From the IMG/VR virus record IMGVR_UViG_3300021197_001531, positions 1 through 57,936 of that record: a stretch of DNA of 57,936 nt; one strand, given 5' to 3'. Of the stretch, positions 1,000 to 20,965 are shown piece after piece. This stretch comes from a virus (lineage: Duplodnaviria; Caudoviricetes). The notes beneath the pieces are model-generated. The model ran no database searches. It saw nothing but the letters and a program-made list of their open reading frames with translations, and was not told where the DNA came from. Each line of letters begins with the position of its first letter. Within the stretch, counting starts at the first letter, position 1. Position numbers and translations under genes: made by a program.

Positions 1000-1170
1000 A
1001 TGGTCGGTTTTTTCTTCTCTTACTTGCTTGTGGCACTCATTACGGTGTGGTGGGGCACAGCCGTTTGGATGTTCAATGACTTAGGTGAAGGTGTTGAGAT
1101 TTTCAAAGAAGGTGATGAGGCTGAGTTTCATCAAGCCTGCTTCAACGGTATGCGGAGAGGGATTCAGTGA
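1000..1170 (+). CDS. Small single-pass membrane protein
   Basis: Hydrophobic stretch FFFSYLLVALITVWWGTAVWMF; TATA-like TTTTATTT at 970-977; stop overlaps the next start (GTGA). Confidence 0.55.
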   Translation: MVGFFFSYLLVALITVWWGTAVWMFNDLGEGVEIFKEGDEAEFHQACFNGMRRGIQ

Positions 1171-2006
1171 ATATCACCGTGTACGAGGTCGGCCCTCGTG
1201 ACGGTCTTCAATCTATAGAACATTTTATTCAAACGCCGATAAAACAAAATCTGATTGCCGCTTTGTACAATGCTGGTTTAGAGCATGTGGAAGAGGTGAG
1301 TTTTGCTCACCCGAAACTTGTGCCGCAAATGGCTGACGCAGAAGAAGTGTATGACAGGGGTGCCGCTTTAATCATGAACAAGCGTGGGTATGACCGTGCA
1401 GTGGCGGCTGGAGTTGACAAGTTCAACATCGTTTTTAGTCCGTGTGAAACTTTCAACATCAACAACATGGGCAAGACTCGCAGTGAAATTGTGTTGATGT
1501 ACAAGACATTCATGAAAGAAATACCCAAAGACAAGGTGCGAGTGTACATCAGCATGGCATTTGGTTCACCCCATAGCGGCACACCTCGCCTCAACACTCT
1601 CATTTCGTGCATTCGTGATGCCAAGATGTTTGGTAATACTGTGGTGTTTGCTGACACTGTAGGTGTAGCGACTCGTCGGGACATGGAATATGTGGGTGAA
1701 TTGGCGAAAAACGAAGGTGTGCGACCAGCACTCCACCTGCATCACAATGGCAACGAAGGGCGAGCCATGGAATTAGTGCGTCACGCCATCTTCCATGGCA
1801 TTCACGAGATTGATTCCAGTATTGGTGGTCTTGGTGGGTGTCCGTTTGCTACCAACAGTGGGGCAAATTTGTCCACTGAGTCATTGGTTGTTAATTTACA
1901 CGCTTGGGGTTTTGAAACTGGTGTAAATGAAAATGTATTGAAAGAAGCATCACTCATAGCGAGCAAAATAAAATTCAATGATGAGGGCCGTAAAATAGTG
2001 GCATGA
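1167..2006 (+). CDS. hmgL: Hydroxymethylglutaryl-CoA lyase-like protein (DRE-TIM metallolyase); auxiliary metabolic gene
   Basis: EVGPRDGLQ, SFAHPKLVPQMADA, ADTVG, HLH metal motif and DSSIGGLGGCPFA..SGANLSTE signature. Confidence 0.88.
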   Translation: MNITVYEVGPRDGLQSIEHFIQTPIKQNLIAALYNAGLEHVEEVSFAHPKLVPQMADAEEVYDRGAALIMNKRGYDRAVAAGVDKFNIVFSPCETFNINNMGKTRSEIVLMYKTFMKEIPKDKVRVYISMAFGSPHSGTPRLNTLISCIRDAKMFGNTVVFADTVGVATRRDMEYVGELAKNEGVRPALHLHHNGNEGRAMELVRHAIFHGIHEIDSSIGGLGGCPFATNSGANLSTESLVVNLHAWGFETGVNENVLKEASLIASKIKFNDEGRKIVA

Positions 2007-3672: not shown

Positions 3673-4950
3673 ATGGCGAGGGTGCTGATAAGCAAGGCTA
3701 CTCTTGCTGATTTCGGTGTACCTCGCCAAGAAGTGGCAGTTCGCCCACCTATGCCCACCGAACAACAAATTCGTGAAGCGGTGTTGGGGGATGAAAACTT
3801 GGGGTTAATGTCACCCGAACAGTACGGTATGCGAATGCCCCTTATTGAGCGTGAGCGAGATTCGTCTGTGGAAGAAAGACAAAGAGAAAAACACAATCCG
3901 GGTGAAACAGGAAGGAAATTTTTAGAGGGTATGAGGCTTGAAGGTGCGTTAGCAAGTGGTGTCGCTATGCGTGAGTTTCCTGCCATCGGGATGCACGATA
4001 ATCACGAAGTAATGCCATTTTTGCGTGATTACTATAGTCGGCAAACTACGATACCCGAACATGACTGGCAGTATCACACTGAAGGGCCGTATTATGATGA
4101 AGAAGGGAACATCTTGCCCGGACAGGTACCCCCTGTAGATGCTGTTAAGTTAATGGGAGAAGCCGACATCAAGCATGTGGGACAGGGGAGTGGATTTGGA
4201 TTAAAACCACTCCCTTTTTCACATGTAAACGAAAGGTGGGAAATAGACGATATAGAACCCGGAAAGCAATTTCCTGCTGAAAACATAGGTTTTGTCGGCC
4301 CAACTATGGAACAAGCCATAACACGAAATGCAGCCGCTAATGTTTCACGACAAACTCCAAGGGGGTATGTTGGAGTAAGAGGATTCGGTAGGCCAAGCGA
4401 TAAGGCGTTTGCAAGAAGAACATTTGAAGGTGGAGAAGGTGGTTTTACAGCACCCATACCACCGGAACGCTTAGTAGGTGCTATGCCTGCATCAAGAGCC
4501 AATTTAGGAAAAGATTCTTCAAGAGTATTACCTGTAATGAAGCCGACAATTGTTGAACCAAAAACCGATAAGGAAAAAATAATGGAAGCAGTGAGAGATG
4601 GTATCATATCCCCATTAGATGTGCCATTACTATTGGCCCGTAAAAAATATATGAGTCACGAATTTCCTTACGACGCAGAATGGTATGAAGGTGTTATACC
4701 AACATTTTCAAATAAAATGCGGCGGGAAAGCCAACCAGCGGTAAATGCCATTAAAAATGCTTTTAAAAACGCTATACCTAAGTCGTGGGAAGAAGGGCAT
4801 TTCGGGCTGGAGAATGCAATTTTAACCGACGCTGAAAAAGCGAATTACATCCGTCAACTGGAAGAGCAACAGGAAAAACTACCCTTTTCATATGTAGATG
4901 AAGATAACACGGTACTTTATCCAAAGAAAACAGGGGTGCGTTTCACATGA
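3673..4950 (+). CDS. Hypothetical protein (N-terminal MARVLISKA tag)
   Basis: ORF track starts at 3334, but that extension overlaps the antisense gene. In-frame ATG 3673 follows a TATA box and gives the recurring VLxxK leader. Confidence 0.72.
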   Translation: MARVLISKATLADFGVPRQEVAVRPPMPTEQQIREAVLGDENLGLMSPEQYGMRMPLIERERDSSVEERQREKHNPGETGRKFLEGMRLEGALASGVAMREFPAIGMHDNHEVMPFLRDYYSRQTTIPEHDWQYHTEGPYYDEEGNILPGQVPPVDAVKLMGEADIKHVGQGSGFGLKPLPFSHVNERWEIDDIEPGKQFPAENIGFVGPTMEQAITRNAAANVSRQTPRGYVGVRGFGRPSDKAFARRTFEGGEGGFTAPIPPERLVGAMPASRANLGKDSSRVLPVMKPTIVEPKTDKEKIMEAVRDGIISPLDVPLLLARKKYMSHEFPYDAEWYEGVIPTFSNKMRRESQPAVNAIKNAFKNAIPKSWEEGHFGLENAILTDAEKANYIRQLEEQQEKLPFSYVDEDNTVLYPKKTGVRFT

Positions 4951-6518
4951 AGCCCGTGCTGGTCAAGAAGGCTTTGCCTCGGCATTGGTCAAAGGATTTT
5001 GATACCACTGAGGATTTACGCAGTGTGTTAAGACAGGCTCGTTTGATGTCTCTTGAGGATGCAAAAAACATTGAAAACATACCGCTAAGACCCGAAATAA
5101 GAGATTGGGAATTAGAACAAACCGCTGAAGGAATGAAAAGTATTGTTCCGGGTATTCAAGGTGGAAAAATCACAGACCAAGGATATGTGGATGAAGGTGG
5201 GGCGTTTACTTATCCCCCTCAATTACAATCATTTCTACCCTTGATACACCCCGAAGCAAGAATGAGCGGCGTTACTATGCCCGACATACCCGGCTCAATG
5301 GGTAAACCGGGTGGAAGACCGAGTGTTTTAGTTGGTTCCTTTGAAAAGCCGGAGTTTCACGCCACTCAAAAAGAAGGGCGTGTACAAACAGAAGGGTTCA
5401 TGCCGGGTGGTTTTGACCCTTCTCAAGCGGTTCTTCTCACAGAACCCTCTCGTGCCTTCGCAAGACAAGAAGTGCCAATGGCTATACACAATCTTGTAGG
5501 AGGAAAAATGAAGGATTATGCTCCCGGCACCTTTGGTTATAATGAACCCGCAGGAAGGGCCATGGAATCATTCAACATTTTACCACATGGTGCAGAAAGT
5601 CCATTGTCGCAGTATTCGGGGTGGGGGAAACCCCGAACTGTTGATGATGAATTTCGCCTTAGCGAACCAATGGACATCGCTTTCCAACTGCTCAAAGCGT
5701 ATGATGTTGAAGAAGTCAAAAGAAAACTTATGGACAAGGGTTCTTATGAAGACTATGTTGACTATCAAATCACTGATGCACAACCCGGTATGGACAGGAC
5801 ATTACCCCGTCCTTACGGTTTAATGAGCCACCAAGCGTTGAATGCTTTACATAACGGGTGGTTTGAAGGGGATATTCGGGACATGCTTGATGACCCCAAT
5901 TTTTCCTTTGAAAGAGATAACGAGGGAAATGCGATTTGGAGTGCTCACAATTTAGGATGGGGAAACCCCGAACACGCCGACCCCGAACATATGGGTTTTA
6001 TGATTGAAAATCAATTAGAAGGAACCCCTGTGGACTTTGAAGGAATAGGTAGAGAGAGTAATTTAAGGACATTGGAAAATGTACCCTTTGAACTCAATGA
6101 GCCACAATCGTCATCCTTTTTGGGAATGAAAATGAACCCCACATCCACTACCAGTTTTTCCACTCATTCAGCACACGGTCCAACAAACACCTTAGAGGAA
6201 GTTGAGGGAATGAAAGGGCGAGGTTTTCAAGACATTTACACAGGCGAACCAATGAACATCGCTTTCCAACTGCTCAAAGAGCGTGTAAGCCCCGAAGCCA
6301 AGCGGCACAAGTTGGAGTACGACAAGAAGTACGAGTCCAGCCCGGAACGGGTGAAGTATCGGGAGGACTTGAACCGTGAACGCCGCCGCCGTGGTATCTA
6401 TGGTAGTCATAATCACCAAGATGTAAGTCACACTGAGGGCGGCAAATTAACCCTTGAAAGCGAGCATGAAAACAGGGCACGGCACTTCAAAGACAAGGGA
6501 ACCCTTCGGGAATTGTGA
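4947..6518 (+). CDS. Three-module protein separated by EPMxIAFQLLK tags; C-terminal module basic and possibly HNH-like
   Basis: MKPVLVKKA leader; SEPMDIAFQLLK (5661-5696) and GEPMNIAFQLLK (6243-6278); last module has DVSH...ENRAR, reminiscent of small phage HNH proteins. Confidence 0.72.
   Translation: MKPVLVKKALPRHWSKDFDTTEDLRSVLRQARLMSLEDAKNIENIPLRPEIRDWELEQTAEGMKSIVPGIQGGKITDQGYVDEGGAFTYPPQLQSFLPLIHPEARMSGVTMPDIPGSMGKPGGRPSVLVGSFEKPEFHATQKEGRVQTEGFMPGGFDPSQAVLLTEPSRAFARQEVPMAIHNLVGGKMKDYAPGTFGYNEPAGRAMESFNILPHGAESPLSQYSGWGKPRTVDDEFRLSEPMDIAFQLLKAYDVEEVKRKLMDKGSYEDYVDYQITDAQPGMDRTLPRPYGLMSHQALNALHNGWFEGDIRDMLDDPNFSFERDNEGNAIWSAHNLGWGNPEHADPEHMGFMIENQLEGTPVDFEGIGRESNLRTLENVPFELNEPQSSSFLGMKMNPTSTTSFSTHSAHGPTNTLEEVEGMKGRGFQDIYTGEPMNIAFQLLKERVSPEAKRHKLEYDKKYESSPERVKYREDLNRERRRRGIYGSHNHQDVSHTEGGKLTLESEHENRARHFKDKGTLREL
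5662..6279 (+). repeat. 36-nt direct repeat pair (5662-5697 and 6244-6279), 35/36 identical
   Basis: GCGAACCAATG(G/A)ACATCGCTTTCCAACTGCTCAAAG read at both positions, 582 nt apart and in frame. Confidence 0.92.
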
Positions 6519-6700
6519 GTATTCACTTACCTCACTTTACTCAAACTTCACTTCACCTAAAATGAGGTAACTGGAATAGTCACTTTACTCATAGGTACTA
6601 CTCTTAATATAATATAATTATAGAATATAGTGAATAAATGAAGTAAACTGGGGGGTCAAAAATGGTGAGTGAAGTTTTGACTAAAGTGACGAAAGCGAAA
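6519..6700. other. Origin-like intergenic region (short repeats flanking an AT-rich core)
   Basis: TCACTTTACTCA at 6532-6543 and 6580-6591; multiple TCACT copies on the left and AGTGA copies on the right; imperfect inverted repeat 6541-6557 / 6664-6680; AT-rich core about 6604-6640. Confidence 0.5.
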
Positions 6701-6702
6701 CG

Positions 6703-6710
6703 CTTATATT
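6703..6710 (+). promoter_or_regulatory. TATA-box-like promoter of the membrane protein/GTPase operon
   Basis: CTTATATT preceded by purine-rich GAAAGCGAAA (BRE-like); GGTGAGG RBS at 6730 precedes ATG 6740. Confidence 0.5.
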
Positions 6711-6739
6711 GACCACTATTTTGACCATGGGTGAGGACA

Positions 6740-7306
6740 ATGCAACCGAATGGTAACACTTCCGAAGCCGAAATCCGTTTGATGGGTTTGATTTTAGCGC
6801 AATCCGCACTGGTTGGTTTGGCCATCGGTTTGTTTGATGCTGACATGTGGTTGAACACTGAAGACCCAATGGTAAACGGTTTTACTTATGCCATGGCCGC
6901 TTTCTTTGTACAGGGTATTGCCTACTATTTCTTCAAAATGTTCTTTGAACAAAACATGCAAGAGCGTGTGAGAGTGCAAAACATGGAGCGACAGCGGCAA
7001 GGCCGGTACCGCAGTATGCAATACAATTTTGATAACCGGAGAGCCGAAATGGAATTGCGTATGCAAGAGGCGCAGTTGGAAACTGAGTTGAGTTGGATGG
7101 AGAAAAACCCCGGTAAGATGCCCCCTTCTTGGGGCGTTCCCGGTGGTGCCCCTTCGTTGGTTGAGCAACAAGAAAACAAACTTATCACCAATCCACCGAA
7201 ACATTCAGCGGAAATTAAAACCCCAGTAAATCTTGGTATCAAGCAAGATGAGGATGTACCCGTCAAAAAAGACGGTACGCCCGATAAGCGTTACAAGAGC
7301 GATTGA
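6740..7306 (+). CDS. Membrane protein with two TM helices and a cytoplasmic coiled coil
   Basis: Hydrophobic LMGLILAQSALVGLAIGLF and FTYAMAAFFVQGIAYYFF followed by Q/E/R-rich heptads; ORF track start 6731. Confidence 0.75.
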   Translation: MQPNGNTSEAEIRLMGLILAQSALVGLAIGLFDADMWLNTEDPMVNGFTYAMAAFFVQGIAYYFFKMFFEQNMQERVRVQNMERQRQGRYRSMQYNFDNRRAEMELRMQEAQLETELSWMEKNPGKMPPSWGVPGGAPSLVEQQENKLITNPPKHSAEIKTPVNLGIKQDEDVPVKKDGTPDKRYKSD

Positions 7307-7578
7307 GTGGTGATGATGTGGGTCGTATTTTCAAAACACCTACGGATGACTCTACTGAAGCCACGCTTCGTGCAATGCACACACAAAACACACTGGACAA
7401 TTATTACGAAAAGGGCGTTGGATGGCTACGCACTTTTCTTTTTGTTTTGGTTGCCATACTTGGTACCAGTTATTGGGAAATTTATACAGGTGAATCAGCA
7501 TGGGAAAACACAGTGGAATGGATGTGGCAAAAAGTTCAAGATGTCGCAGACTGGCTTTGGGGGCTTGTAAATGGTTGA
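7303..7578 (+). CDS. Small membrane protein (one TM plus Trp-rich amphipathic helix)
   Basis: WLRTFLFVLVAILGTSYW and WENTVEWMWQKVQDVADWLWGLV; overlaps neighbours; true start may be GTG 7318 after a GGTGA RBS. Confidence 0.68.
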   Translation: MSGDDVGRIFKTPTDDSTEATLRAMHTQNTLDNYYEKGVGWLRTFLFVLVAILGTSYWEIYTGESAWENTVEWMWQKVQDVADWLWGLVNG

Positions 7579-8287
7579 ACCTGCTGGTACGGCGATGGTC
7601 GGAGCGATGGTGTGGGGAAAAGCCATATTCAACGCATGGAGGCCACGCAAGGTCGGTATTTACGGTGCTGGACTAACAGGTAAAACCACACTTGACCGTT
7701 ATATGACAACACCGGGAGAAATGGAAGAAATTCCCGAAGAAGAACGGACAACACATTTCAAAATGTTAGGTCGTTACAACTTACCCAAACCAACCCGTAA
7801 GCGAGTGTCTTGGAAGGGTGAAAAACGAGTTGTATTTTCTGCTGATGTAGGCGGTCAAGAGCGATTTTGGAACTTGTGGATTGATGACATGGTGAATCGT
7901 AATGTGGAATGTGTTGTTTACATGTTTGATGACCGTGCTATCAAAGGTGGGGAAGAAGCACTTCAGCAAATTGCCGGATTCAAATATCTCGTTGATGCAG
8001 TAGTAAACAGGCAATATCGTTATCGCAACATTCGGAGCAGATGGCGGGGAAAAAAATACACCCCTAAACTCATTATGTTGGTCGCAAATAAAGCAGACCG
8101 CTTTTTTGATGATACAGCGGTTATGCTTTGGCAACAAGAGCGTATCGGTGAGCACAAAATTTTTGATGCGTTTCGTGATGATTTAGTTCGCTTACAAAAA
8201 GCAGGGGTGCCTACACGCCGCTCCTTTATGGCTACACGAATTGGTTGGAATGTTGATACAACCATGATTTCTCTTTTGACGACTTAG
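7571..8287 (+). CDS. Ras-superfamily small GTPase, Arf-like
   Basis: G1 GAGLTGKTT (7664-7690), G3 DVGGQ followed by ERFWNLW (7844 onward), VVYMFD strand, G4 NKAD (8087-8098); hydrophobic N-terminal helix. Confidence 0.85.
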   Translation: MVEPAGTAMVGAMVWGKAIFNAWRPRKVGIYGAGLTGKTTLDRYMTTPGEMEEIPEEERTTHFKMLGRYNLPKPTRKRVSWKGEKRVVFSADVGGQERFWNLWIDDMVNRNVECVVYMFDDRAIKGGEEALQQIAGFKYLVDAVVNRQYRYRNIRSRWRGKKYTPKLIMLVANKADRFFDDTAVMLWQQERIGEHKIFDAFRDDLVRLQKAGVPTRRSFMATRIGWNVDTTMISLLTT

Positions 8288-8295
8288 GTGATAAA

Positions 8296-8466
8296 ATGAC
8301 GAAAACTACAGTGGCTTCAGTGGGACAATCCAGCAACAGTGTGCGAACAGTAATCCCAATGTGGATTGCTGAAATGATGAAACTTGAAAAGGGAGCAAAG
8401 ATTGAATGGGAATTGATTCGTACCGAAAAAGGGTACGCCGCCCAGTTCAAAGGTGATGTTTCATGA
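8296..8466 (+). CDS. AbrB/MazE/SpoVT-family DNA-binding protein (56 aa, absent from the ORF track)
   Basis: Manual translation MTKTTVASVGQSSNSVRTVIPMWIAEMMKLEKGAKIEWELIRTEKGYAAQFKGDVS matches the S-x-R-x-x-IP...L-x-x-G-x-x-I-x-W pattern; GGTGA RBS at 8287; fills the gap between genes. Confidence 0.8.
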   Translation: MTKTTVASVGQSSNSVRTVIPMWIAEMMKLEKGAKIEWELIRTEKGYAAQFKGDVS

Positions 8467-9395
8467 TGAATTTTACACGACAACAACCACAACAGCGTCT
8501 TGGGGATGCTAATGAAGCACACTTGTATGCACTCGCACAGCAAGGTAACGGTGGGTTATCCCATGCCGCACTCATGGAGCAGGCCACAGCGCAACAACAA
8601 ATGCAAAATGTAGCAGAACAAAACAATTTACAAGTTCCTAAAGTCAATTTTTATCCTTCTCGTCACCCCGACCCCCACAAGGCTCGTCGTAAAGACATCA
8701 AACAGGCTTATTCTTTGTTGATGCCTTCTAAACGCAGTATTTTCAATCCAGTGAGAACATTCCTTGGTCGTAAATACAGGTACGACAAGCAAACACATGT
8801 ATGTGTGGTAGATGGTTGCGACTGTGCTACACTCATTCAGTATGACAATCTGTACGCCAAGATAACAGATGAAGATACAGGAAAGAGTCTTTGGGAATTG
8901 TATTGGCGAAATCCAGTAACAGGTGAAGCAGAAGCGTTTATTGCAAGAGATAAAGTGACCAATGGGCGAAAAATGAGGGGTACTTATTGCCCCGAACATC
9001 TTCATCTCTATCATCTGCTATGCAAATGGGAAGCAGAAGAAGAAAAAGTACGAGAAAACAACCCTCGCCGTCTTCGTGACCAAGTAAAGCGTGGTGTCAG
9101 TGTTGTCACTGTACCCGTTGCCTCTATTGCAAAGAAGGATAGAACACCTCCTATGTTGGAAAAATATGAACCATTCTTTGATGAGTTGATGCGAGACTCA
9201 AAGAAAACCGAAGGTATCAACATCATACACTACAAAAATCCAGTTACTAAACAGAACGATGTGACCATGGTGGTGTTTGATTTGCGAATTTTTGAGCATG
9301 AACTGGCTATGATGAATCAACCTACTCCGTCATTTCAAAACATGATGAATCAACAAAACAATCTTGAACATGAAGGTACTGGGTTAGGTGAGTGA
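8463..9395 (+). CDS. Hypothetical protein, Q-rich N-terminus, possible Cys/His zinc site
   Basis: 310-aa ORF; CVVDGCDC and YCPEHLH; overlapping start/stop with neighbours. Confidence 0.75.
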   Translation: MMNFTRQQPQQRLGDANEAHLYALAQQGNGGLSHAALMEQATAQQQMQNVAEQNNLQVPKVNFYPSRHPDPHKARRKDIKQAYSLLMPSKRSIFNPVRTFLGRKYRYDKQTHVCVVDGCDCATLIQYDNLYAKITDEDTGKSLWELYWRNPVTGEAEAFIARDKVTNGRKMRGTYCPEHLHLYHLLCKWEAEEEKVRENNPRRLRDQVKRGVSVVTVPVASIAKKDRTPPMLEKYEPFFDELMRDSKKTEGINIIHYKNPVTKQNDVTMVVFDLRIFEHELAMMNQPTPSFQNMMNQQNNLEHEGTGLGE

Positions 9396-10023
9396 CATGT
9401 TGGGACTGGGCGGAAACAATCAACCACCGATGAATAATGGAACGCTGAATTTAGGAGTTTCGGGGCATCAACAACCGTGGCCAGCCCAGCAACCCCAGCA
9501 AAATCCGTTTGCACAAACACCGCAATCTCCTTTTGTTGGTGGTATGGCTAACGGTGCGGCTGGCCAGTGGGGTCAACAACCAGTTGCCCCACCAAGTGAT
9601 ATTGAAATTCAAATTATGCTTCTTCGTGGTATTGTACCTATGGACAGATTTGTGGCAAGTCAACAAATGGCGACTCTCGTACAAATGCTCAACAACCTTG
9701 TAAGTTTCAGTGTTCTTGAAGTGATGAAAAACGCAGTATTCGCTGAAGATGGTGAAGGAAATCTCAAAATGGACATTACGAAATTGCCCTCCCATCTTCA
9801 AACCATGAGTGCTGAAAACATCAAGGCGGAGTTCAATACACTACAAAGTAATGCACAACAAAACATCACATTGGCTGAGCAAGGACAAAGCCAAATTGCC
9901 GCTTACTCTCAGCAGAATATGATGAGTGGTGCGCTTTCAGCGGCTTTGGCTGATGAAGGTATGATGGAAAAAGTCGGCGGTGGTGTTGGTAGCGTTGCAA
10001 GGGGAATGTTGGGGCTGAGATGA
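9388..10023 (+). CDS. Hypothetical protein with Q/P/G-rich disordered N-terminus and helical C-terminus
   Basis: 211-aa ORF in the operon; Gly-rich amphipathic C-terminal end. Confidence 0.72.
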   Translation: MSDMLGLGGNNQPPMNNGTLNLGVSGHQQPWPAQQPQQNPFAQTPQSPFVGGMANGAAGQWGQQPVAPPSDIEIQIMLLRGIVPMDRFVASQQMATLVQMLNNLVSFSVLEVMKNAVFAEDGEGNLKMDITKLPSHLQTMSAENIKAEFNTLQSNAQQNITLAEQGQSQIAAYSQQNMMSGALSAALADEGMMEKVGGGVGSVARGMLGLR

Positions 10024-10262
10024 TGGAAAAGCAATTCATTGGTAATTCGTTTGCCGCAACTTCATTAAATGTCCTTAATCCTCATCGTAGTGTCATTGTT
10101 GACATGATTATGGTACAGATTTTGGCCGCTATCATCACGCTTTCACTTCTTTTGCTTCTCAAAGGAAACGAAATCGGCTCAACCAATGCTTCTTACTTGA
10201 TGGTGGCCCTATTCGGTACTGTTGTTTTCTTGAGTGCTGTTTATTCTCGCATCACTCGCTGA
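10020..10262 (+). CDS. Small two-TM membrane protein (holin-like topology)
   Basis: IMVQILAAIITLSLLLLL and YLMVALFGTVVFLSAVY; basic C-terminus. Confidence 0.68.
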   Translation: MMEKQFIGNSFAATSLNVLNPHRSVIVDMIMVQILAAIITLSLLLLLKGNEIGSTNASYLMVALFGTVVFLSAVYSRITR

Positions 10263-10502
10263 AGGCCATTTTCCGATTGGACACTCCGAAGATAGCAGTG
10301 CGGTTTTTATTTTAATAAAACAGCCGCATTGTCGGCATCTCGTATCTTCTTTAAATGGACATGTGTAACAAATCCGTAATCGCTCTTCCCGTAAAATCTC
10401 CGGTGCTTCACGCCCCAACACTTTATCCTTAACTGCGTTGGTGAGACTACGCATGGTTTCGTATGAAAGAGGAACTTTACCCACACGAGGTACCCTTCTC
10501 AT
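10209..10502 (-). CDS. Cys-rich small protein (DUF6171-like)
   Basis: RLRICYTCP..CRQCGCFIKIK..CPIGKW pattern common in marine viral proteins; divergent promoter with 10553. Confidence 0.65.
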   Translation of the reverse strand: MRRVPRVGKVPLSYETMRSLTNAVKDKVLGREAPEILREERLRICYTCPFKEDTRCRQCGCFIKIKTALLSSECPIGKWPSASDARINSTQENNSTE

Positions 10503-10552: not shown

Positions 10553-11230
10553 ATGGCGGGGGAGCGAGTGATAAAGCGTTCTTGTGCTTTTTGCGTCTGT
10601 GAAGACCGAGATTCATTTGAAGAACAGATGCTTCAAGGCTTCATATCTGCTCGTCAATTGGATAAAGACATGGGTTGGCGAGCCAATACAGCAGACCGAC
10701 ATTACCGGAATCACATGGGAGATTACCACATGGCGGCAAATACAGAATGTGCTTTGTGCACTACGCCGATGCGTGGCGAATACGAGCGTGTCTTTTACGA
10801 AGACGGTAGTACAAGTGAGCAAATCGCTCAAGACTTGGGTATATCAGTGGATAATGTGTTCCATCACATGAAGCATCACTTCCAACCACTTGTGCAAAAG
10901 TCTGCGGCCATTGAGGTTGCACTAACCGCTGGAAATGAAATTTCTTTACTACGCTCAAATGCTGAAAAATTAAATTACAAACTCAGCGAGTTGCTTAACG
11001 AGGGCACCGTACACGAAGATGGGTTTGTGCGAGATGCCGTGGCTTTGCACAAGGAAGTTCGTGAAACCGTCAAAGACTTGTTGCGCTTTCAAGACCAATG
11101 GGGACCAAAAGGTGACGGCCAACAAGTCAATCAAACATTCAACATTTTGCAAGTGGAGTTGGGTAAAGAAAGCCCCGACACATGGATGCGAATTAAAAAA
11201 CAGTTACAAGAAAACATGGGGGCTGAATGA
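10553..11230 (+). CDS. Tandem CxxC-HTH-HxxxH protein; candidate terminase small subunit
   Basis: Two units (CAFC...HYRNH and CALC...HMKHH) followed by a helical region and QVNQTFNIL strand; heads the operon containing terL. Confidence 0.5.
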   Translation: MAGERVIKRSCAFCVCEDRDSFEEQMLQGFISARQLDKDMGWRANTADRHYRNHMGDYHMAANTECALCTTPMRGEYERVFYEDGSTSEQIAQDLGISVDNVFHHMKHHFQPLVQKSAAIEVALTAGNEISLLRSNAEKLNYKLSELLNEGTVHEDGFVRDAVALHKEVRETVKDLLRFQDQWGPKGDGQQVNQTFNILQVELGKESPDTWMRIKKQLQENMGAE

Positions 11231-12501
11231 TGTCAATGGGTCGTGGTTCGGACACTCGCATGTATGCGCCTCGTAGTGAGTCGGATAAGATGTACTCTTC
11301 AGCCAATGAGGATGAAGATAAATACAGTCCTGCTGACCCGGACTATAATGAGAAAAAGCGTGAAGAAAAAAAGCGCAGGGTTGAAGAAAAGAAGGCTCAG
11401 CGTGACAAAATTAAACATATTAAAATTCGTGCTACACAGGGTTTGAGTGGGGAAGAATCTTCTAATCCGCTTGATGATGGCAACAAGCGTGATGATGAGC
11501 GTGAAATGGGACTACAGGGTGGCCCTGCTGGTAGTCGGGGTACGCTTCTTGACCTCGCTACTGGGGCAAAAAGCGGAACAGGCTCAGCCATGAGTCCCGG
11601 CCTTCCAATCGCTATGAGCGAACCGATGGAGGATGCTTGGAGTACATTGCTCAAGCGAGAAACACCACGCACCATCGCAGGACGACGCAAGCGTGAGGCT
11701 CGCCAGCAATTCCGTCCCTCTACGGGCCAGTTCAAGACACCCCCCGGAGGAATGGCTGGTGGTGCCGGTGCTACGATGCGCCGCTTCAAAGCACAGATGC
11801 GTGGTATCAAAAGTGGAAAAAAGACTGGATTGATGAAACCGCATCTGTCGGTTGAGATGAGCCACCGTGGTATTCAAACTAAACAACCGTTGTCTAAAGA
11901 CCCGCAAAAATACACGGCCTACAAAGGACAATCCGAGGCTCGTAAAATTTTAGGTGGAGCGAGGACCACTTTCTCACCCCACGCAAGGTATGGTGTACGC
12001 TCTAACAGGGCAGGACCAACTGGTGCTGGGCGACTGGGTGGGTTAATGCCCGGACAACGAGGCCAGTTGGCCCGTCCTGCTCTTCGTCGTATGCGTCAAC
12101 CTCGTATGCCTCGTATGCCTCGTATGAGCGCACCTATGCCTCCTACCCCACCTATGATGCCACAGATGCAATCCAGCGTTCCCGCTATGCCTTCCCCATC
12201 CTCAAGCATCATGATGAGTGAAGAGCGATACCGAAGTGAAATTCTCAAAGCACGAAACAGCCTTCATCGTATTGAATTGCTCAACCTTATGCGACGGCTT
12301 ATCCAAGCCAAAGAGCGAGAGGCAAAGATTAAGAAAAATTTGACAGCGACAGATGCCGCTGATTTACCCGGTCACCCTGCTGGTGTCAAACCGACCGATG
12401 ACGAAGACCCCCAAGGGCCGACTGAAAATCTTGAAACTGACCCCAAAACATTTGGGTTGGACCCTGTGGGTATAATTAACAGCAGACGGGGTGGAATGTG
12501 A
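11227..12501 (+). CDS. Basic low-complexity protein with SEPMEDAWSTLLK tag; putative internal head protein
   Basis: Tag at 11617-11655 and a second SEILKA site; R/G/M/P-rich; CCTCGTATG x3 at 12100-12126. Confidence 0.72.
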   Translation: MMSMGRGSDTRMYAPRSESDKMYSSANEDEDKYSPADPDYNEKKREEKKRRVEEKKAQRDKIKHIKIRATQGLSGEESSNPLDDGNKRDDEREMGLQGGPAGSRGTLLDLATGAKSGTGSAMSPGLPIAMSEPMEDAWSTLLKRETPRTIAGRRKREARQQFRPSTGQFKTPPGGMAGGAGATMRRFKAQMRGIKSGKKTGLMKPHLSVEMSHRGIQTKQPLSKDPQKYTAYKGQSEARKILGGARTTFSPHARYGVRSNRAGPTGAGRLGGLMPGQRGQLARPALRRMRQPRMPRMPRMSAPMPPTPPMMPQMQSSVPAMPSPSSSIMMSEERYRSEILKARNSLHRIELLNLMRRLIQAKEREAKIKKNLTATDAADLPGHPAGVKPTDDEDPQGPTENLETDPKTFGLDPVGIINSRRGGM

Positions 12502-15554: not shown

Positions 15555-17045
15555 ATGAGCGACATGGAAGATTTTATTCACGACATGGACAGGAAGATGT
15601 CTGCTAAGTCGTTTGAATACTTCTTCACTCAAATTTTAGGATTTGACTACTCCGCTCATCACGCATCGTGGGACGAGGGTTTGGCTGAACATCGTTATTA
15701 CTGTGTAAAAGCATCTCGTGACCACGGTAAGTCCGTATTTTTTATGTCTTATGCCCTATGGATTGCCGCCTTTCAACCGGGAACACATGTCATGATTTTT
15801 TCACATTCTCTTGAGCAGACGCTTGAACACATGCGATTCATACGCAACAACATAGAAGGTACACCTTGCTTACGATTCCTCATTCCCGAAGGTCGCCCTT
15901 GGCGAAAGACCTACTTTGAGTTCAATAACGGTAGCCGTATGATGGCAAAGTCAACAGGTGGTGGTACCCGTGGTTTCCACCCGAATGTTGTGGTCTGTGA
16001 CGACATCTTGTGGGGAACAACGGGAACTGAACTTCAGCGTGCCGCAGATTGGTTTTACGGTGTCCTTCTCCCTGTTCTTCACCACACAGGTCGCCTTATG
16101 ATGGTGGGTACTCCGTTTTCATACAACGATTTGTATTCTCAGTTGGAACAAACTGAAACTTTCCAAGTTGAAACATACCCTGCTATCAACAAAGAAGGTG
16201 AGGCGTTGTGGCCCGAACGCTGGGATTTAGAGTCACTTGACCAGCGGCGTTTGACTATGCCAGCCATTCAATTTTCTCGTGAGTACCTGTGTGAACCAAT
16301 CCACGATGTTGCAAGTATGTTCCCTCATGATATATTGGAAAAAGCCCGTAACAAGGATTTAGTGTTGCTTGACCGAGCAGATACAGAATACGATGCTGAC
16401 GGTGAACCTGCTGGAATTTTCGGGCAACATTTCATTGGATGGGACACAGCCATTGCTTCGGATAAGAATGCTGACTTTACAGCCATGACTGTTCTGCGTA
16501 TGTTACCCGAAGAAGATGTAAAACAGGTTGTTGGGATTGTGCATGAAAGAGGTATGACTGGGCTGGCACAAAAGAATCAAATCATGATGCTCAACAATCG
16601 CTTTCAGCCCGACTTGATTGAGTTGGAAGGTAACAACTTCCAACGCATGTTTCAAGCCGAGTTGCTTGAGATGAGGCAAGACATCCCCATCAAGACTTTC
16701 ATCACGACCCGTACACGCAAGGAGAGTCTGTTTATGTCCCTCTTGATGGCGTTTGAGCAGGGTAAGATACAAACACCATATGGAGACAAGCGTAGCCGTG
16801 AATTTACTCATAAATTAGAAACTGAACTCAATCGTTTCGGTATGCAAAAGAGCGGGAAGTTGGAAAGTGTTGGTACACATGACGACTTGGCTATGTCTCT
16901 CGCATTGGCCAATTGGGGTACAAAAGAGTTCAAAGGCTCAGTTGTTCTTCTTGATGATGTACTACCGGGCTTTGATGAGTGGATTCGTGGTAAACCACAC
17001 CGTTCACAAAACGACAATCCGGCTGATGGGTGGATGATACCATAA
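15555..17045 (+). CDS. terL: Terminase large subunit
   Basis: Walker A ASRDHGKS, Walker B VVCDDI, coupling motif GTP, ALWPERW, RNase-H-like nuclease residues IGWD, DFTA, IELE and HDDLAMS. Confidence 0.95.
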   Translation: MSDMEDFIHDMDRKMSAKSFEYFFTQILGFDYSAHHASWDEGLAEHRYYCVKASRDHGKSVFFMSYALWIAAFQPGTHVMIFSHSLEQTLEHMRFIRNNIEGTPCLRFLIPEGRPWRKTYFEFNNGSRMMAKSTGGGTRGFHPNVVVCDDILWGTTGTELQRAADWFYGVLLPVLHHTGRLMMVGTPFSYNDLYSQLEQTETFQVETYPAINKEGEALWPERWDLESLDQRRLTMPAIQFSREYLCEPIHDVASMFPHDILEKARNKDLVLLDRADTEYDADGEPAGIFGQHFIGWDTAIASDKNADFTAMTVLRMLPEEDVKQVVGIVHERGMTGLAQKNQIMMLNNRFQPDLIELEGNNFQRMFQAELLEMRQDIPIKTFITTRTRKESLFMSLLMAFEQGKIQTPYGDKRSREFTHKLETELNRFGMQKSGKLESVGTHDDLAMSLALANWGTKEFKGSVVLLDDVLPGFDEWIRGKPHRSQNDNPADGWMIP

Positions 17046-17888: not shown

Positions 17889-19193
17889 GTGGTCATTATG
17901 TGGGGGAGTATGTTCATAGGTGACGAGTACGATGTACCGTTGCAAATGAATGACGATTTCTCCAACACGGTGTTGAAGAGTTTATCTCAACACCCTAATT
18001 TTCAACCCGAAAATGTGCCTTTGAGGGTGATTGACAGTGTTGTAAAACAAGATGACATCAAGCCACAATTTGCCATGAATGGCGACGGATGGTTTGAAAG
18101 TAAGTATGGAAAGGACGCTAACACAATCATTCGCATGTGTCGTAAAATGAGGCGACATGATAAATCATTTAAAGAAGAATATGATGGTATTATCAAAGAT
18201 ATTCGTCGTGTTAAAGCGATGGAAGTTGATGCTACCATTAAATCGCTGGATTGGGCAGATGGATTGGAAGATGTCATTCGTAACATTGGTCTTAACGACC
18301 GCTCACTCAAAGCATTACGAAAATTCGGTAGTTCAAGAAGTACCAGCCTACAGAAAGCCTGTCAGCAATACCTCAAAGCCATGACCGTTCTTCAGCATCT
18401 CAATGGATTAGAAGACTGGGAAGCGGAGGACCAGCAGAATTGGGTCAAAGCAAATGAATTGAAAAAGGATGCACAAAAAATGTGGAGGAACACCCTTCAC
18501 CAAATGGATAACCTCAAAAAAACAGAAGTATCTGCTATTGAGTTTGCTTCCGACCTTCTTGAAAAAGAAGGGGCACTCGGTAGTCGTGAAATTATACGAC
18601 GGGGGTACGGTATTATCAATAAATCTATGACACCGGGGCGTATGAGTGCTTTGCTGAAGATGTATGGAGAAGAGGTGGATGTTTACAAAGGAAGCACACG
18701 GCAAACTTTTGTGAAGAAGGGCACTGAGGGTTTCATCGTTAAAGATATGTGGGCATACACCGCCGGATTTGTAGATGCTGACGGTAGCATTTTCATCTCC
18801 GAGCGAGGTGACCCCCGTGTTACTATTGTAGCCAGTGGTAGTAACGGAAAAACTCACTGTGAGGAATTGCAAAAGATGATTGGTTGCGGTAGGCTCGTTT
18901 CCGACCAAAAATTGGCTAAAAACACCATCAAACCAGTTCATCGGCTTATTTTTTCTTCCAAGAACGATATTCGTGAAATTCTTAAAGGGGTATTACCCCA
19001 TTTGAAACTTAAATCGCTACAGGCAAAGGCTGTTTTAGATTACATTGGACAAAAAGACTCCATGCGAAAGACAGAACTGTACCAACTGGTAACTTACAAC
19101 AATTGGAAAGAGCATAAAAACAAAGCCACTTCTCTTCTTAACAAGTGGGGCTTGAGTGCTGACACTATTGGTGGATATGCTGAGGGGTTGTAA
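17889..19193 (+). CDS. Protein with a C-terminal LAGLIDADG endonuclease domain
   Basis: WAYTAGFVDADGSI and LPHLKLKSLQA motifs after about 285 aa of helical N-terminal region; start may be ATG 17898. Confidence 0.85.
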   Translation: MVIMWGSMFIGDEYDVPLQMNDDFSNTVLKSLSQHPNFQPENVPLRVIDSVVKQDDIKPQFAMNGDGWFESKYGKDANTIIRMCRKMRRHDKSFKEEYDGIIKDIRRVKAMEVDATIKSLDWADGLEDVIRNIGLNDRSLKALRKFGSSRSTSLQKACQQYLKAMTVLQHLNGLEDWEAEDQQNWVKANELKKDAQKMWRNTLHQMDNLKKTEVSAIEFASDLLEKEGALGSREIIRRGYGIINKSMTPGRMSALLKMYGEEVDVYKGSTRQTFVKKGTEGFIVKDMWAYTAGFVDADGSIFISERGDPRVTIVASGSNGKTHCEELQKMIGCGRLVSDQKLAKNTIKPVHRLIFSSKNDIREILKGVLPHLKLKSLQAKAVLDYIGQKDSMRKTELYQLVTYNNWKEHKNKATSLLNKWGLSADTIGGYAEGL

Positions 19194-20965
19194 TGGCAGA
19201 AGAACAAGGAAGAATTACTCGCTTTCTTTCGGCGTTGGGTACACCCTTCCGTCGTAAGGAATCACCAACACCAACTATGCCGTTGTGGACAAGTGGTATT
19301 CAAGAACCCGTCATGGCGCAAGGTATCACCATACCCGCCCTTTATGCTGTAAGCAATGAATCGTTGATTCTTCGTACAGTTCTCGCTAAACTTCGTCAAG
19401 AAATGTTTCGCCGGGGTTATTACTGGGAAAAGAAATTTGCACGCATTTGCACTGTATGTAGCGAGGAATTTCAAAGTGAAGTTGAAACATGTAGCGAATG
19501 TGGTGGTTCAGTTCGTAAACCCGACATTGATGAGTTGACATACGCAAAATGGTTACTCAAGCAAGAAAACTCAATGGAGCAATCTTTCATACATGTACTC
19601 AACGAGATAGAGGCTGACCTCAACATTGTTGACGACGCCTTTTTGATTTTAGTCAAAGAGTATTTCATTGACCCTAAATCCAAAGAAGTTGCCTTTTTCC
19701 GTGTTAAAGAGATAATGCGTGGTGACCCAATCTTCATGCGTATTGTCGCTGACAAGCGTGGTGTTCGTGGTGGTCGTTACAAGACATGTTTGATACACCG
19801 TGACCAAATTAAAACTCACGCTGAACAAGATACCTGTGAAGAATGCGGCGCAGACCTACACGATGTACACTATGTGAACATGGCCGGTAGCGGTAAAACT
19901 CAATACTTTGTTGAAGGAGAAGTTCTTCATGTCAGTAAGTACAAACCTGCTAAATTGTATGGGCGTTCTCCGGTCAACACCATGTGGCGGCAAGCCATGA
20001 CCTTGACAGCGATGGACAATTACATTTACACCGCTTATCAAAAGCGTCGGATGCCCAAAGGAATCGTTTCGGTCACAACAGACAATTTGGAGTCAATGAA
20101 GTCTTTTTGGAAGGCTGTTGATGAGAAAATGGAGCGTGACCCTCATTACATTCCTAAAGTGGGAATTGAATCTTCCAGTGGTCGTGGGGGTGTAAATTGG
20201 ATTAAATTCATGGACACTCTTGAAGAAATGCAATACATGTCTGTGCGTGATGAAATTCGTAACAGAATAGCCGCTTTTTACGGTGTATCATCTGTTTTTA
20301 TGATTGACAGTGGTAAGTCGGGCGGTCTTAACAATGAAGGTATGCAAATTCTTGTGACCAATCGTGCTGTTGAGTTTGGGCAAAAAGTGTACACCGAAGT
20401 TCTTTTCCCTCGCTTGTTAAAGCAGATGAATATAAGTGACTGGAAACTAACACTGTACCCCAATGAGGAAGAAGATGAGATTACTCGCCTGCGCCGTGAT
20501 TCGGAAGAACTCAATGTTGCACAGCGTATGGCACAACTTGGTTTCATGCCCGAATTGATTGAAGACACGGCAAATCGTGATATTCGCTTTACTTACAAGC
20601 GACCCGAACCTCAACCACCGCAACAAGGTGCACCTCCGGGCGGTGCACCACCACCGGGTATGCCACCCGGTATGCCACCGGGTATGCCACCGGGTATGCC
20701 ACCGGGTATGCCACCGGGTATGCCACCGATGGGCGGTGCTGGACCACAAATGCCACCTCAACTCGCAAGACAAGTTATGCCTCCACCTCAACCCGGCGGG
20801 CAGGGTGTTGGTCTGCGTAACAGGGGTCCAGCGACCCCGGAACGCCGTGGGAGTATGGGGAGCGGCGCACCATTCACCAATGTGCAACAAAGAGGCCCGG
20901 AGCCTTCTATGCAACAGAATTTGAGTAACGCTTTACTAAACGCAAGACGCCCTCGTGGTCAGTAA
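19193..20965 (+). CDS. Portal protein with zinc-ribbon insertions and a Pro-rich tail
   Basis: Position after terL; DLNIVDDAF, EVLH, YGRSP, MPKGIV and EMQY..RNRIAAFYGV portal-like motifs; CTVC/CSEC and CLIH/CEEC. Confidence 0.88.
   Translation: MAEEQGRITRFLSALGTPFRRKESPTPTMPLWTSGIQEPVMAQGITIPALYAVSNESLILRTVLAKLRQEMFRRGYYWEKKFARICTVCSEEFQSEVETCSECGGSVRKPDIDELTYAKWLLKQENSMEQSFIHVLNEIEADLNIVDDAFLILVKEYFIDPKSKEVAFFRVKEIMRGDPIFMRIVADKRGVRGGRYKTCLIHRDQIKTHAEQDTCEECGADLHDVHYVNMAGSGKTQYFVEGEVLHVSKYKPAKLYGRSPVNTMWRQAMTLTAMDNYIYTAYQKRRMPKGIVSVTTDNLESMKSFWKAVDEKMERDPHYIPKVGIESSSGRGGVNWIKFMDTLEEMQYMSVRDEIRNRIAAFYGVSSVFMIDSGKSGGLNNEGMQILVTNRAVEFGQKVYTEVLFPRLLKQMNISDWKLTLYPNEEEDEITRLRRDSEELNVAQRMAQLGFMPELIEDTANRDIRFTYKRPEPQPPQQGAPPGGAPPPGMPPGMPPGMPPGMPPGMPPGMPPMGGAGPQMPPQLARQVMPPPQPGGQGVGLRNRGPATPERRGSMGSGAPFTNVQQRGPEPSMQQNLSNALLNARRPRGQ
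20651..20722 (+). repeat. 12-nt tandem repeat CCACCGGGTATG x6 (PPGM x6) in the portal C-terminus
   Basis: Read directly; one unit carries a synonymous change (CCACCCGGTATG). Confidence 0.95.

Follow-up and report, generated by a model that had tools for sequence, protein, structure and literature searches.

What does a tailed virus of prokaryotes do with a Ras-like small GTPase that it encodes among small membrane proteins? This question is raised by the linear IMG/VR record IMGVR_UViG_3300021197_001531 (Duplodnaviria; Caudoviricetes), whose entire length of 57,936 bp (G+C 42-52%, estimated completeness 54%) we refer to as the window. A sequence-only reading of this DNA had pointed to positions 6740-10262, where it saw an operon with an Arf-like GTPase and suspected a GTP-switched system for lysis or egress, vesicle formation or superinfection exclusion. 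Seven abutting ORFs, here called g1 to g7 with g3 as the GTPase gene, indeed occupy this interval on the plus strand and are followed by a convergent gene. We consider it well supported that they make up a membrane-associated GTP switch module, since three of the six core genes (g1, g2 and g7; the core is the block without g4) encode predicted transmembrane (TM) proteins, and since the GTPase resembles, in its fold, its switch II signature and its N-terminal helix, a class of GTPases whose members attach to membranes by way of this helix. The block would be an operon heading the morphogenetic (late) arm of the genome, and we tentatively propose that its switch might drive remodelling or permeabilisation of the host membrane, most probably in the service of virion release.

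The product of g3 is a genuine small GTPase of the Ras superfamily (TRAFAC P-loop class). Its G1, G3 and G4 motifs, which the sequence-only reading had called intact, proved invariant or nearly so across 187 unique family sequences, and so did G5. G32, G37 and K38 of G1 (residues 32-39) are found in all 187 and T39 in 186, while D92 and G95 of G3 (92-96), N173-K174-A175-D176 of G4 (173-176) and A221 and T222 of G5 (220-222) occur without exception; distant members carry ISA or VSA at G5. The switch I region contributes two further invariant stretches in this set (T47-P48-G49-E50 and R59-T60-x-H62), and W100, L102 and W103 are likewise present in 187/187. An AlphaFold2 model built from a 26-sequence alignment (predicted local distance difference test, pLDDT, 88.6; predicted template modelling score 0.85) displays a standard G domain with three inserts, and a fold search of the PDB with this model returned at least 500 matches at E<=1e-3, among which those listed were G domains throughout.

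To what extent is this an Arf protein? The 26-sequence family profile found its best PDB match in the Asgard archaeal GTPase GerdArfR1 (8oun; E 1.4e-9), in an alignment spanning the N-terminal helix through switch II, as compared to E-values of about 1e-5 for KRas, HRas and Rab33B. The viral DVGGQERFWNLW aligns with DLGGQLHFRNLW of GerdArfR1; column for column, D92-V-G-G-Q-E-R-F-W-N-L-W103 matches this stretch, and we scored the DxGGQxxxRxxW signature as present save for the variable Q96. The parallel to Arf switch II drawn in the sequence-only reading thus stands as an alignment, but the glutamine itself is not fixed: of the 187 sequences, 135 have Q where Arf has its catalytic Gln, while E is found in 40, D in 9 and H in 3. 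By fold ranking, the closest solved structures are Arf-family members, with Arl8b (8jc5), Arf6 (2a5f), Arl1, Arf1 and Sar1 (1m2o) as the best eukaryotic ones. Among the 26 family members, the Pfam Arf model yielded the best E-value (5.2e-9, for the member P0207) and reached E<=0.1 in seven, with SRPRB next; when ten distant members were scanned singly, P0207, the most peripheral one, alone exceeded the PF00025 cut-off (36.2 vs 22.3 bits). Besides, some members bear the automatic JGI name 'GTPase SAR1 family protein', and a protein-language-model atlas ranked, behind viral clusters, bacterial ones with PF00025 in 17-67% of their members, which we take as a lead only.

Other comparisons were less telling. 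PF00025 did not match the window protein at E<=1, nor did it in a six-frame search of the window, and the sole Pfam match of this protein was a sub-threshold one to Roc (E 0.02). The best phmmer hits in the PDB, Arl8A and Arf2, had E-values of merely 0.13-0.76. In a maximum-likelihood tree, the viral family formed a clade of its own (96/94), attached at the deep split between Ras-type and Arf- plus Rag-type GTPases. The 56 rows of this tree comprised 21 viral-family sequences and, from one Asgard metagenome-assembled genome (MAG), nine Arf-type (one ambiguous), 21 Ras-type and five Rag-type (one ambiguous) proteins labelled by their Pfam scores, with eukaryotic, SRbeta, ArvA and MglA references left outside. 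Approximately unbiased (AU) tests rejected neither a grouping of the viral with the Arf-type (p 0.283) nor with the Ras-type sequences (p 0.561), and hhalign scored both similarly (Arf-type 97.4%, E 1.5e-11; Ras-type 97.8%, E 1e-12). The GTPase looks Arf-type in its fold, as judged from the profile-to-structure search and the fold ranking, but membership of the Arf family was not established by profile, tree or hhalign. Of the two approaches that bear on the earlier Arf-like label, the profile search did give an Arf-like match, whereas the phylogeny, including the AU tests, did not place the GTPase, and neither did hhalign.

The likeness to the ArfR proteins of Asgard archaea (references: GerdArfR1, 8oun/8oum, and HodArfR1, 8ouk; Vargova et al., bioRxiv 10.1101/2024.02.28.582541) extends to a helix that precedes the G domain and to a G5 motif of the 'AT..G..V' type in both. 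According to the accessible text of that study, ArfR occurs only in Asgard archaea and one korarchaeal clade and binds membranes through its N-terminal helix, as shown experimentally. In the viral protein, the corresponding helix is predicted at residues 4-23 (pLDDT 54-72) and aligns with that of ArfR. Unlike ArfR, however, this helix is hydrophobic, Gly/Ala-rich and not clearly amphipathic, and the viral GTPase is only ~17-18% identical, carries the three inserts, is ~50-60 residues longer and does not nest among the Arf-type GTPases of the one Asgard genome in our tree. It also differs from eukaryotic Arf proteins, as it lacks a Gly2 myristoylation context, varies at the switch II Gln and has large inserts at three places, namely in switch I, behind beta4 and in the interval from G4 to G5. 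One insert at ~148-163 (RQYRYRN..SR..GKKY) is basic and aromatic, with Y151, R152, G160, K161 and Y163 invariant and Y149 and R150 nearly so in 15 sequences. It has no counterpart in Arf and may provide an additional membrane- or nucleic acid-binding surface.

As far as we could see, the GTPase family is viral only. A collection of 5.8 billion proteins contained 454 relatives at E<=1e-3 (clusters at 90% identity), the best 120 of which were 76-93% identical and came from marine metagenomes, on contigs of up to 150 kb. When 1.84 billion proteins were searched with a profile of 15 close members, 88 representatives (50% identity) came up at E<=1e-3, of which ~11 are full-length; since this is far below the return of a profile that reaches the cellular Arf, Rab and Ras families, the family is narrow. 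Among 185,579 species genomes, the only matches were three short contigs (L082, L083 and L084; 8-16 kb). Their MAG labels (Promethearchaeati/Asgard, Maricaulis and Parvibaculum) might have suggested hosts or cellular homologues, which we rejected; the contigs are short and carry the viral block in MAGs of discordant taxonomy, and we read them as mis-binned viral sequence. No PHROG corresponds to the GTPase, and neither it nor the products of g5 and the downstream gene g9 matched GenBank phage records by tblastn. In agreement with the earlier remark that Ras-like GTPases are unusual in tailed viruses, the 50 best look-alikes in the viral structure library BFVD all were giant-virus GTPases (E 1e-8 to 4e-5), with not a single one from a tailed virus. 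Giant viruses (Nucleocytoviricota) thus share with the present virus group the possession of Ras-superfamily GTPases. Theirs, however, are recent captures of eukaryotic Rab, Ran and Ras by viruses of eukaryotes, whereas the family described here is highly divergent, confined to prokaryote-type tailed viruses and encoded in an operon of its own alongside membrane proteins.

Conservation of the block is what ties the GTPase to its neighbours. IMG/VR held 129 GTPase relatives, of which 80 loci were fetched; counts out of 81 include the window's own copy. By tblastn, g1-g2-g3-g5-g6-g7 were colinear on one strand in 79/81 loci, the two exceptions being one locus without g1-g2 and one without g7 onward. 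Each ORF except g4 was present in 79-81 of the 81 loci (g1, g2 and g7 in 80 each). Median pairwise dN/dS ranged from 0.08 to 0.24 across all seven genes, as calculated from 6-33 pairs per gene with dS <3, and dS was near saturation (~2). Two deeper clades could be compared using family HMMs. In 13 loci of the P0125 type, whose GTPase is ~37% identical, g3, g5 and g6 were found in 13/13, g7 and g9 in 12/13, g1 in 10/13 and g2, at the E-value limit, in 4/13. The third clade, of the P0127 type, yielded g1, g3 and g5 in 4/4 loci and g6, g7 and g9 in 0/4 by HMM. Hence g5 was recovered from all 17 distant loci, and the core of g1, GTPase and g5 persists in deep clades at a GTPase identity of ~37-39%. 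By eye, the deep-clade locus L162 contains a small one-TM ORF where g2 would be expected and, behind g5, a Gln/Met-rich protein resembling g6. No loci of the distant members P0128 and P0157 were found in viral contigs. Given its retention in two deeper clades, the association of the GTPase gene with g1 and g5 is old and maintained, and the same largely holds for g2, g6 and g7.

The fourth gene behaves differently. It was detected in 59/81 loci, and its absence from 22/80 relatives is real, because the GTPase gene and g5 are only 9-64 nt apart there; in the 17 distant loci, HMM searches found no g4 at all. The sequence-only reading had called its product AbrB-like, which is borne out at the family level: while the window copy reaches PF04014 with only E 0.054 (13.9 bits; cut-off 24.7), 9/10 orthologues do so at E<=0.1 (best 2.5e-5), and a motif S.S.RTTIP.WI.E...L..G.K..W is conserved. 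The protein appears to be of the AbrB/MazE (SpoVT-AbrB) swapped-hairpin type, and its gene is an accessory one, inserted in only some of these viruses, rather than a standing member of the cluster. These data bear on one alternative view of the block, namely that of a toxin-antitoxin-like or regulatory cassette around g4 with the GTPase as effector or toxin. It would find a foothold in the PF04014 matches and in the position of g4 directly 3' of the GTPase gene, but a gene that is missing from over a quarter of otherwise intact blocks is not essential to the module, which largely refutes this view and leaves it highly improbable.

This brings us back to the membrane switch and its constant partners, none of which (g1, g2, g5, g6 and g7) gave more than sub-threshold noise against Pfam, PHROGs and NCBIfam. 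The TM counts proposed from the sequence held up. In g1, a hydrophobic segment at residues 14-32 is at TM level in a scan of hydrophobic 19-mers, and a weaker, conserved second one lies at ~49-72; behind them come a conserved helical (coiled-coil-like) region rich in Arg and Glu and a tail rich in Lys and Asp. The g2 protein has a single TM segment (38-56) with a Trp-rich stretch behind it and a conserved, predicted cytoplasmic N-terminus (GRIFKTP..DD..E.TLRAMH), and its real start may lie a few codons inside the ORF. The 80-aa g7 protein, which has two predicted TM segments and ends in a short basic stretch (SRITR), looks holin-like in size and topology, a resemblance without sequence relation to holin families in Pfam and PHROGs. 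The most conserved partner is g5 (52-89% identity). It begins with a Gln-rich N-terminus and a basic helix; a Cys/His region comes next, followed by an acidic linker and, at the C-terminus, by a small alpha/beta domain. C114, C176, H179, H181 and H184 are invariant and C119 is nearly so in 41 sequences. Its model (pLDDT 70.4) contains long helices and had no fold match, nor did g5 have a Pfam, NCBIfam, PHROG or PDB-profile relative or a usable atlas hit; of its 643 relatives, the 120 listed were all unnamed or 'hypothetical' and carried zero Pfam domains. Finally, g6 has a low-complexity N-terminal half rich in Gln, Asn, Gly and Met, whereas its C-terminal half is helical and conserved and runs out into a hydrophobic tail rich in Gly; it is without a significant PDB relative (best E 0.3), a Pfam, PHROG or NCBIfam family or a usable atlas hit.

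The layout of the block and its surroundings (Table 1) fits expression as one unit. Junctions within g1-g7 are overlaps of 4 or 8 nt, besides one 8-nt spacer. In the spacer ahead of g1, an element TTATAT..TGACC..TGAC..GGTGAGG, which ends just 5' of the ATG at 6740, was kept in 23/24 of the closest sequences (g1 at least 60% identical, window included; L067 did not align), out of 78 that had enough upstream sequence. Because a conserved TATA-like box and then a Shine-Dalgarno-like site precede g1, a single operon, and with it the one promoter of the sequence-only reading, is plausible; a generic sigma-70 promoter and terminator scan of the window, by contrast, stayed at chance (11 vs 9.2 and 6 vs 5.6 expected). 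Of note, three or four GTGA/ATGA words, ~10-11 nt apart and conserved in position, lie 5' of the TATA-like box in the window (6660-6700) and its relatives and may be binding sites of a regulator. Contigs at least 99% identical to the window were present in three RNA-seq libraries from three studies and covered parts of g2-g3 (X5, X6), g5-g6, g7 and g8-g9 (X4). Such short contigs reveal neither the strand nor the ends nor the abundance of a transcript, and they may stem from DNA carry-over; they document presence in RNA libraries only and are no proof of transcription, just as a lack of cover elsewhere in the block has no significance. One 500-nt contig in X4 links 9653 to the earlier position 9145 through 4 additional letters, probably because a short circularised or duplicated fragment was misassembled.

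Table 1. Coordinates of the GTPase block and of other features in the window.
Feature	Position	Strand	Remarks
HMG-CoA-lyase-like (HMGL-like) gene	1167-2006		PF00682, E 1.6e-20, 74 bits; candidate auxiliary gene
g0	4947-6518	+	523 aa; variable N-terminus, conserved C-terminal ~95 aa (phrog_6437, function unknown); syntenic, outside operon
AT-rich spacer 5' of g1	6519-6739	+	221 nt; putative operon promoter and leader
TATA-like TTATAT	6704-6709	+	31-36 nt before g1 start
Shine-Dalgarno-like GGTGAGG	6730-6736	+	
g1	6740-7306	+	188 aa
g2	7303-7578	+	91 aa
g3 (GTPase)	7571-8287	+	238 aa
g4	8296-8466	+	56 aa
g5	8463-9395	+	310 aa
g6	9388-10023	+	211 aa
g7	10020-10262	+	80 aa
g8	10209-10502	-	Cys-rich small gene, convergent; phrog_13558 (function unknown), E 6.1e-14
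g9	10553-11230	+	225 aa, conserved; weak helix-turn-helix signal
Large terminase subunit (TerL)	15555-17045	+	Pfam/PHROGs
Portal	19193-20965	+	Pfam/PHROGs
Prohead protease	28046-29422	+	Pfam/PHROGs
Major capsid protein (MCP), HK97-type	29448-30548	+	Pfam/PHROGs

At its 3' end, the block is delimited by g8, which overlaps the end of g7 and was detected in 42/81 loci. Beyond it lies g9, which may be a small terminase subunit and is linked to the block in 80/81 loci, as it is in the P0125-type loci. The block shares its strand with, and directly precedes, g9 and the genes for TerL, portal, protease and MCP. This location invites another interpretation, in which the GTPase serves as an assembly or packaging checkpoint for procapsid, portal or tail at a membrane-anchored site, with g5 and g6 being scaffold- or chaperone-like. 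Not only is the position between g0 and the morphogenetic genes, on their strand, kept in 79/81 loci, but g6 also has its low-complexity Gln/Asn/Gly-rich and helical halves and g5 its long helices, and such composition is common in scaffolding-type proteins. A sequence motif ending in LLK, common to g0, g10 and the ORF at 174-959, might hint at a targeting or processing signal shared within the arm. Yet small integral membrane proteins, which account for half of the core genes, are unusual in the head or tail assembly of tailed viruses, g1-g7 have no PHROG structural-family hits, and we know of no tailed virus that employs a Ras-superfamily GTPase in assembly. On balance, we regard an assembly role as unlikely.

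A few further observations concern this arm. The LLK motif reads (S/G/T)(E/S)P(M/F)(D/E/N)xA(F/W)x(x)LLK and occurs at window positions 204, 5679, 6261 and 11635, that is in the ORF 174-959, twice in g0 (as EPM(D/N)IAFQLLK) and in g10 (11227-12501), all on the plus strand and flanking the GTPase block. It is a candidate for a common targeting, docking or protease-processing signal, its chance expectation not having been computed. The ORF between terminase and portal (17889-19193) has an HNH-endonuclease-like C-terminal domain (phrog_5046, E 1.4e-7). Two giant ORFs of 5,580 aa (40866-57608) and 1,895 aa (22319-28006) are found in the structural arm, the latter with a weak, below-cut-off signal of an ATP-dependent DNA ligase (22.7 bits) at residues 1439-1566. 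No tRNA genes were found in the window.

Which kind of virus carries this block? In GenBank, the MCP matched nine records only, namely haloarchaeal siphoviruses of the HVTV-1, HCTV-5 and HCTV-1 types (34-36% identity) and one Methanofastidiosa virus (29%). This resembles the pattern of magroviruses, for whose MCP Philosof et al. noted 33% identity, to haloviruses alone (PMC5434244, here and below cited from its accessible text). Five near-complete relatives (G001-G005) measure 99.6-115.5 kb (94-100% complete; one with direct terminal repeats), and all five encode a family B DNA polymerase (PolB), which in G001, the one genome for which the strand relation was worked out, lies on the strand opposite to the GTPase block. 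The Magrovirales are delineated by a halovirus-only MCP match of ~33%, a genome of ~65-100 kb and a PolB within an opposite-strand replication module (PMC5434244, PMC10768690), and the window and its relatives conform to this in MCP, size and PolB. As the MCP matches only archaeal tailed viruses, the relatives reach 100-115 kb and PolB is found in 5/5, the virus is probably a magrovirus-like archaeal tailed virus, marine, widespread and roughly 100 kb in size. The Magrovirales exemplar ON649702 was not in the GenBank phage collection used, so the relatives were compared without a named magrovirus. Besides, the HMGL-like gene of the window touches isoprenoid-lipid precursor metabolism. The ICTV profile names such a gene as an auxiliary function in Magrovirales (PMC10768690), in contrast to Philosof et al., who saw no auxiliary metabolic genes in their magroviruses (PMC5434244).

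Archaeal hosts change how the lack of lysis genes is to be read. In lambdoid phages, a holin-based lysis cassette lies just 5' of the terminase genes. The GTPase block is reminiscent of this arrangement in placing small TM proteins before packaging and morphogenesis genes and in g7, with its holin-like size, two TM segments and charged C-terminus. It differs from the lambdoid cassette by including a GTPase and two large orphan proteins, and its host presumably has no wall apart from an S-layer. No endolysin, spanin or wall hydrolase domain was detected by Pfam and PHROGs in g1-g7 or the flanking genes examined, so that no small TM protein of the block was found next to a wall hydrolase, as a holin-endolysin cassette would have it. 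The sequence-only reading had cited the missing endolysin as support, but this argument has no force: murein is lacking from the archaea that are the likely hosts, and one would not expect viruses of such cells to use a holin-endolysin system (PMC10791045, from the available part of this 2024 review). By the same source, no genes are known for the egress of archaeal head-tailed viruses, and holin genes in archaeal virus genomes have been elusive.

Euryarchaea offer a closer precedent in the ArvABC operon, whose Arf-like GTPase drives vesicle budding (Mills et al. 2024, PMC10927574; likewise drawn from its accessible text). There, membrane binding of ArvA via an N-terminal helix is argued for in haloarchaea, ArvB (DUF2073) is encoded directly 3' of the GTPase and ArvC (a DUF2072 Zn-ribbon) within two genes. 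The viral block shares with ArvABC an Arf-like GTPase with an N-terminal helix, a compact operon, small partners of which one is Cys-rich and a euryarchaeal setting, the output of ArvABC being budding. It differs by its three TM partners and by the lack of a DUF2073 or DUF2072 signal in g4-g7 (Pfam, E<=1), a comparison made at the level of the partners. With this precedent, the module could also be imagined to take over the host or exclude competitors: the GTPase and its membrane partners would act on ArvA-type vesicle budding, on division or on receptor and envelope turnover, and thereby block superinfection or redirect membrane and lipid supply. That euryarchaeal hosts vesiculate by means of an Arf-like GTPase operon (PMC10927574) speaks for this, as does the HMGL-like gene with its tie to isoprenoid lipid precursors in the same virus group; a virus-specific, highly conserved family is what one would expect of a factor tuned to a conserved host target. 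Against it argue the lack of detectable ArvB and ArvC homologues in g4-g7 (Pfam, E<=1) and the fact that the block belongs to the late arm and not to the early genes, and we hold takeover or exclusion to be improbable.

We return to virion release as the tentatively favoured output. The block heads the late arm, and since no egress genes are on record for archaeal tailed viruses, release is the most attractive output. In such a scenario, the GTPase would switch between its GTP and GDP states on the cytoplasmic membrane of the host, where g1 and g2, together with its own N-terminal helix, would keep it in place or activate it. In its GTP state, it would recruit g5 and g6, and late in infection the host membrane would be remodelled or permeabilised, g7 being a candidate for the pore or for a holin-like part. 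That the GTPase docks on the membrane and binds its partners, that this happens late and that egress results are all steps that we infer. A complex prediction of the GTPase with g5 (residues 55-300), GTP and Mg scored 0.27 and 0.01 against a mark of 0.32, without controls, and speaks neither way.

Several points weigh against this proposal. Late timing is read from gene order, and a position inside the morphogenetic arm fits assembly equally well. The exchange of Q96 for E, D or H in 52/187 sequences suggests that fast intrinsic hydrolysis may be unneeded or work differently. The N-terminal helix, which the sequence-only reading had rightly described as hydrophobic while invoking the amphipathic helices of Arf and Sar proteins, is strongly hydrophobic (mean hydrophobicity 0.66) but not significantly amphipathic, its hydrophobic moment of 0.30 being equalled by 21.7% of shuffles. 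No recognisable GAP, GEF, coat or lytic domain was found in g5 and g6 by Pfam, NCBIfam, PDB and fold searches. The Cys/His motif of g5, which the same reading had picked out, gives way in the deep-clade locus L162, where the His residues are replaced (CPQALQLFK), and zinc binding is therefore uncertain. The putative host, Poseidoniales, is assigned from the literature and by similarity to haloarchaeal viruses. Moreover, MCM (PF00493, E<=1e-3) was found in 0/5 of the complete relatives G001-G005, although the accessible text of Philosof et al. reports this helicase for all 26 of their magrovirus genomes (PMC5434244); the helicase may be too divergent for the profile, or this group, perhaps as a distinct, GC-richer lineage, may use another one. 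Egress, vesicle formation and exclusion thus are roles assigned by inference, and both assembly and takeover or exclusion fit the facts nearly as well.

The gene as such is not new to databases: it has been annotated automatically, yet as far as we searched it is not discussed in the literature. Among the publications that our searches listed, we found none on a virus-encoded small GTPase or Arf module in magroviruses, viruses of Poseidoniales or other archaea, or Caudoviricetes, although supplementary tables may list an automatic 'GTPase'; the word 'GTPase' is absent from the main texts of the magrovirus papers checked. Taken at its boldest, the block would be the first dedicated membrane-remodelling or egress machine of archaeal tailed viruses, in which a TM-anchored, virus-evolved Arf-type GTPase times and drives membrane opening or budding without a wall hydrolase, and the GTPase would at the same time stand for an ancient lineage of Arf-like proteins that exists beyond Asgard archaea and eukaryotes; we think it rather unlikely that all of this applies.

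In summary, the present work describes a concrete, compact and experimentally tractable six-gene candidate for egress in an abundant virus group. Magroviruses have been described as among the most abundant viruses of the ocean (PMC11706807, PMC5434244, both in their accessible text), and if the egress reading were true, such a machine would be carried by some of the most abundant viruses of the surface ocean. Arf-related GTPases with an N-terminal membrane helix have been reported almost only from Asgard archaea, where they are used as evidence for an early endomembrane capacity, and a deep Arf-like family confined to viruses, of which three deep clades were examined here, bears on the origin and spread of such switches. 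Either way, even if egress should prove wrong, the tight genetic linkage of a GTPase with three membrane proteins in a virus of prokaryotes represents a new setting for small GTPases.

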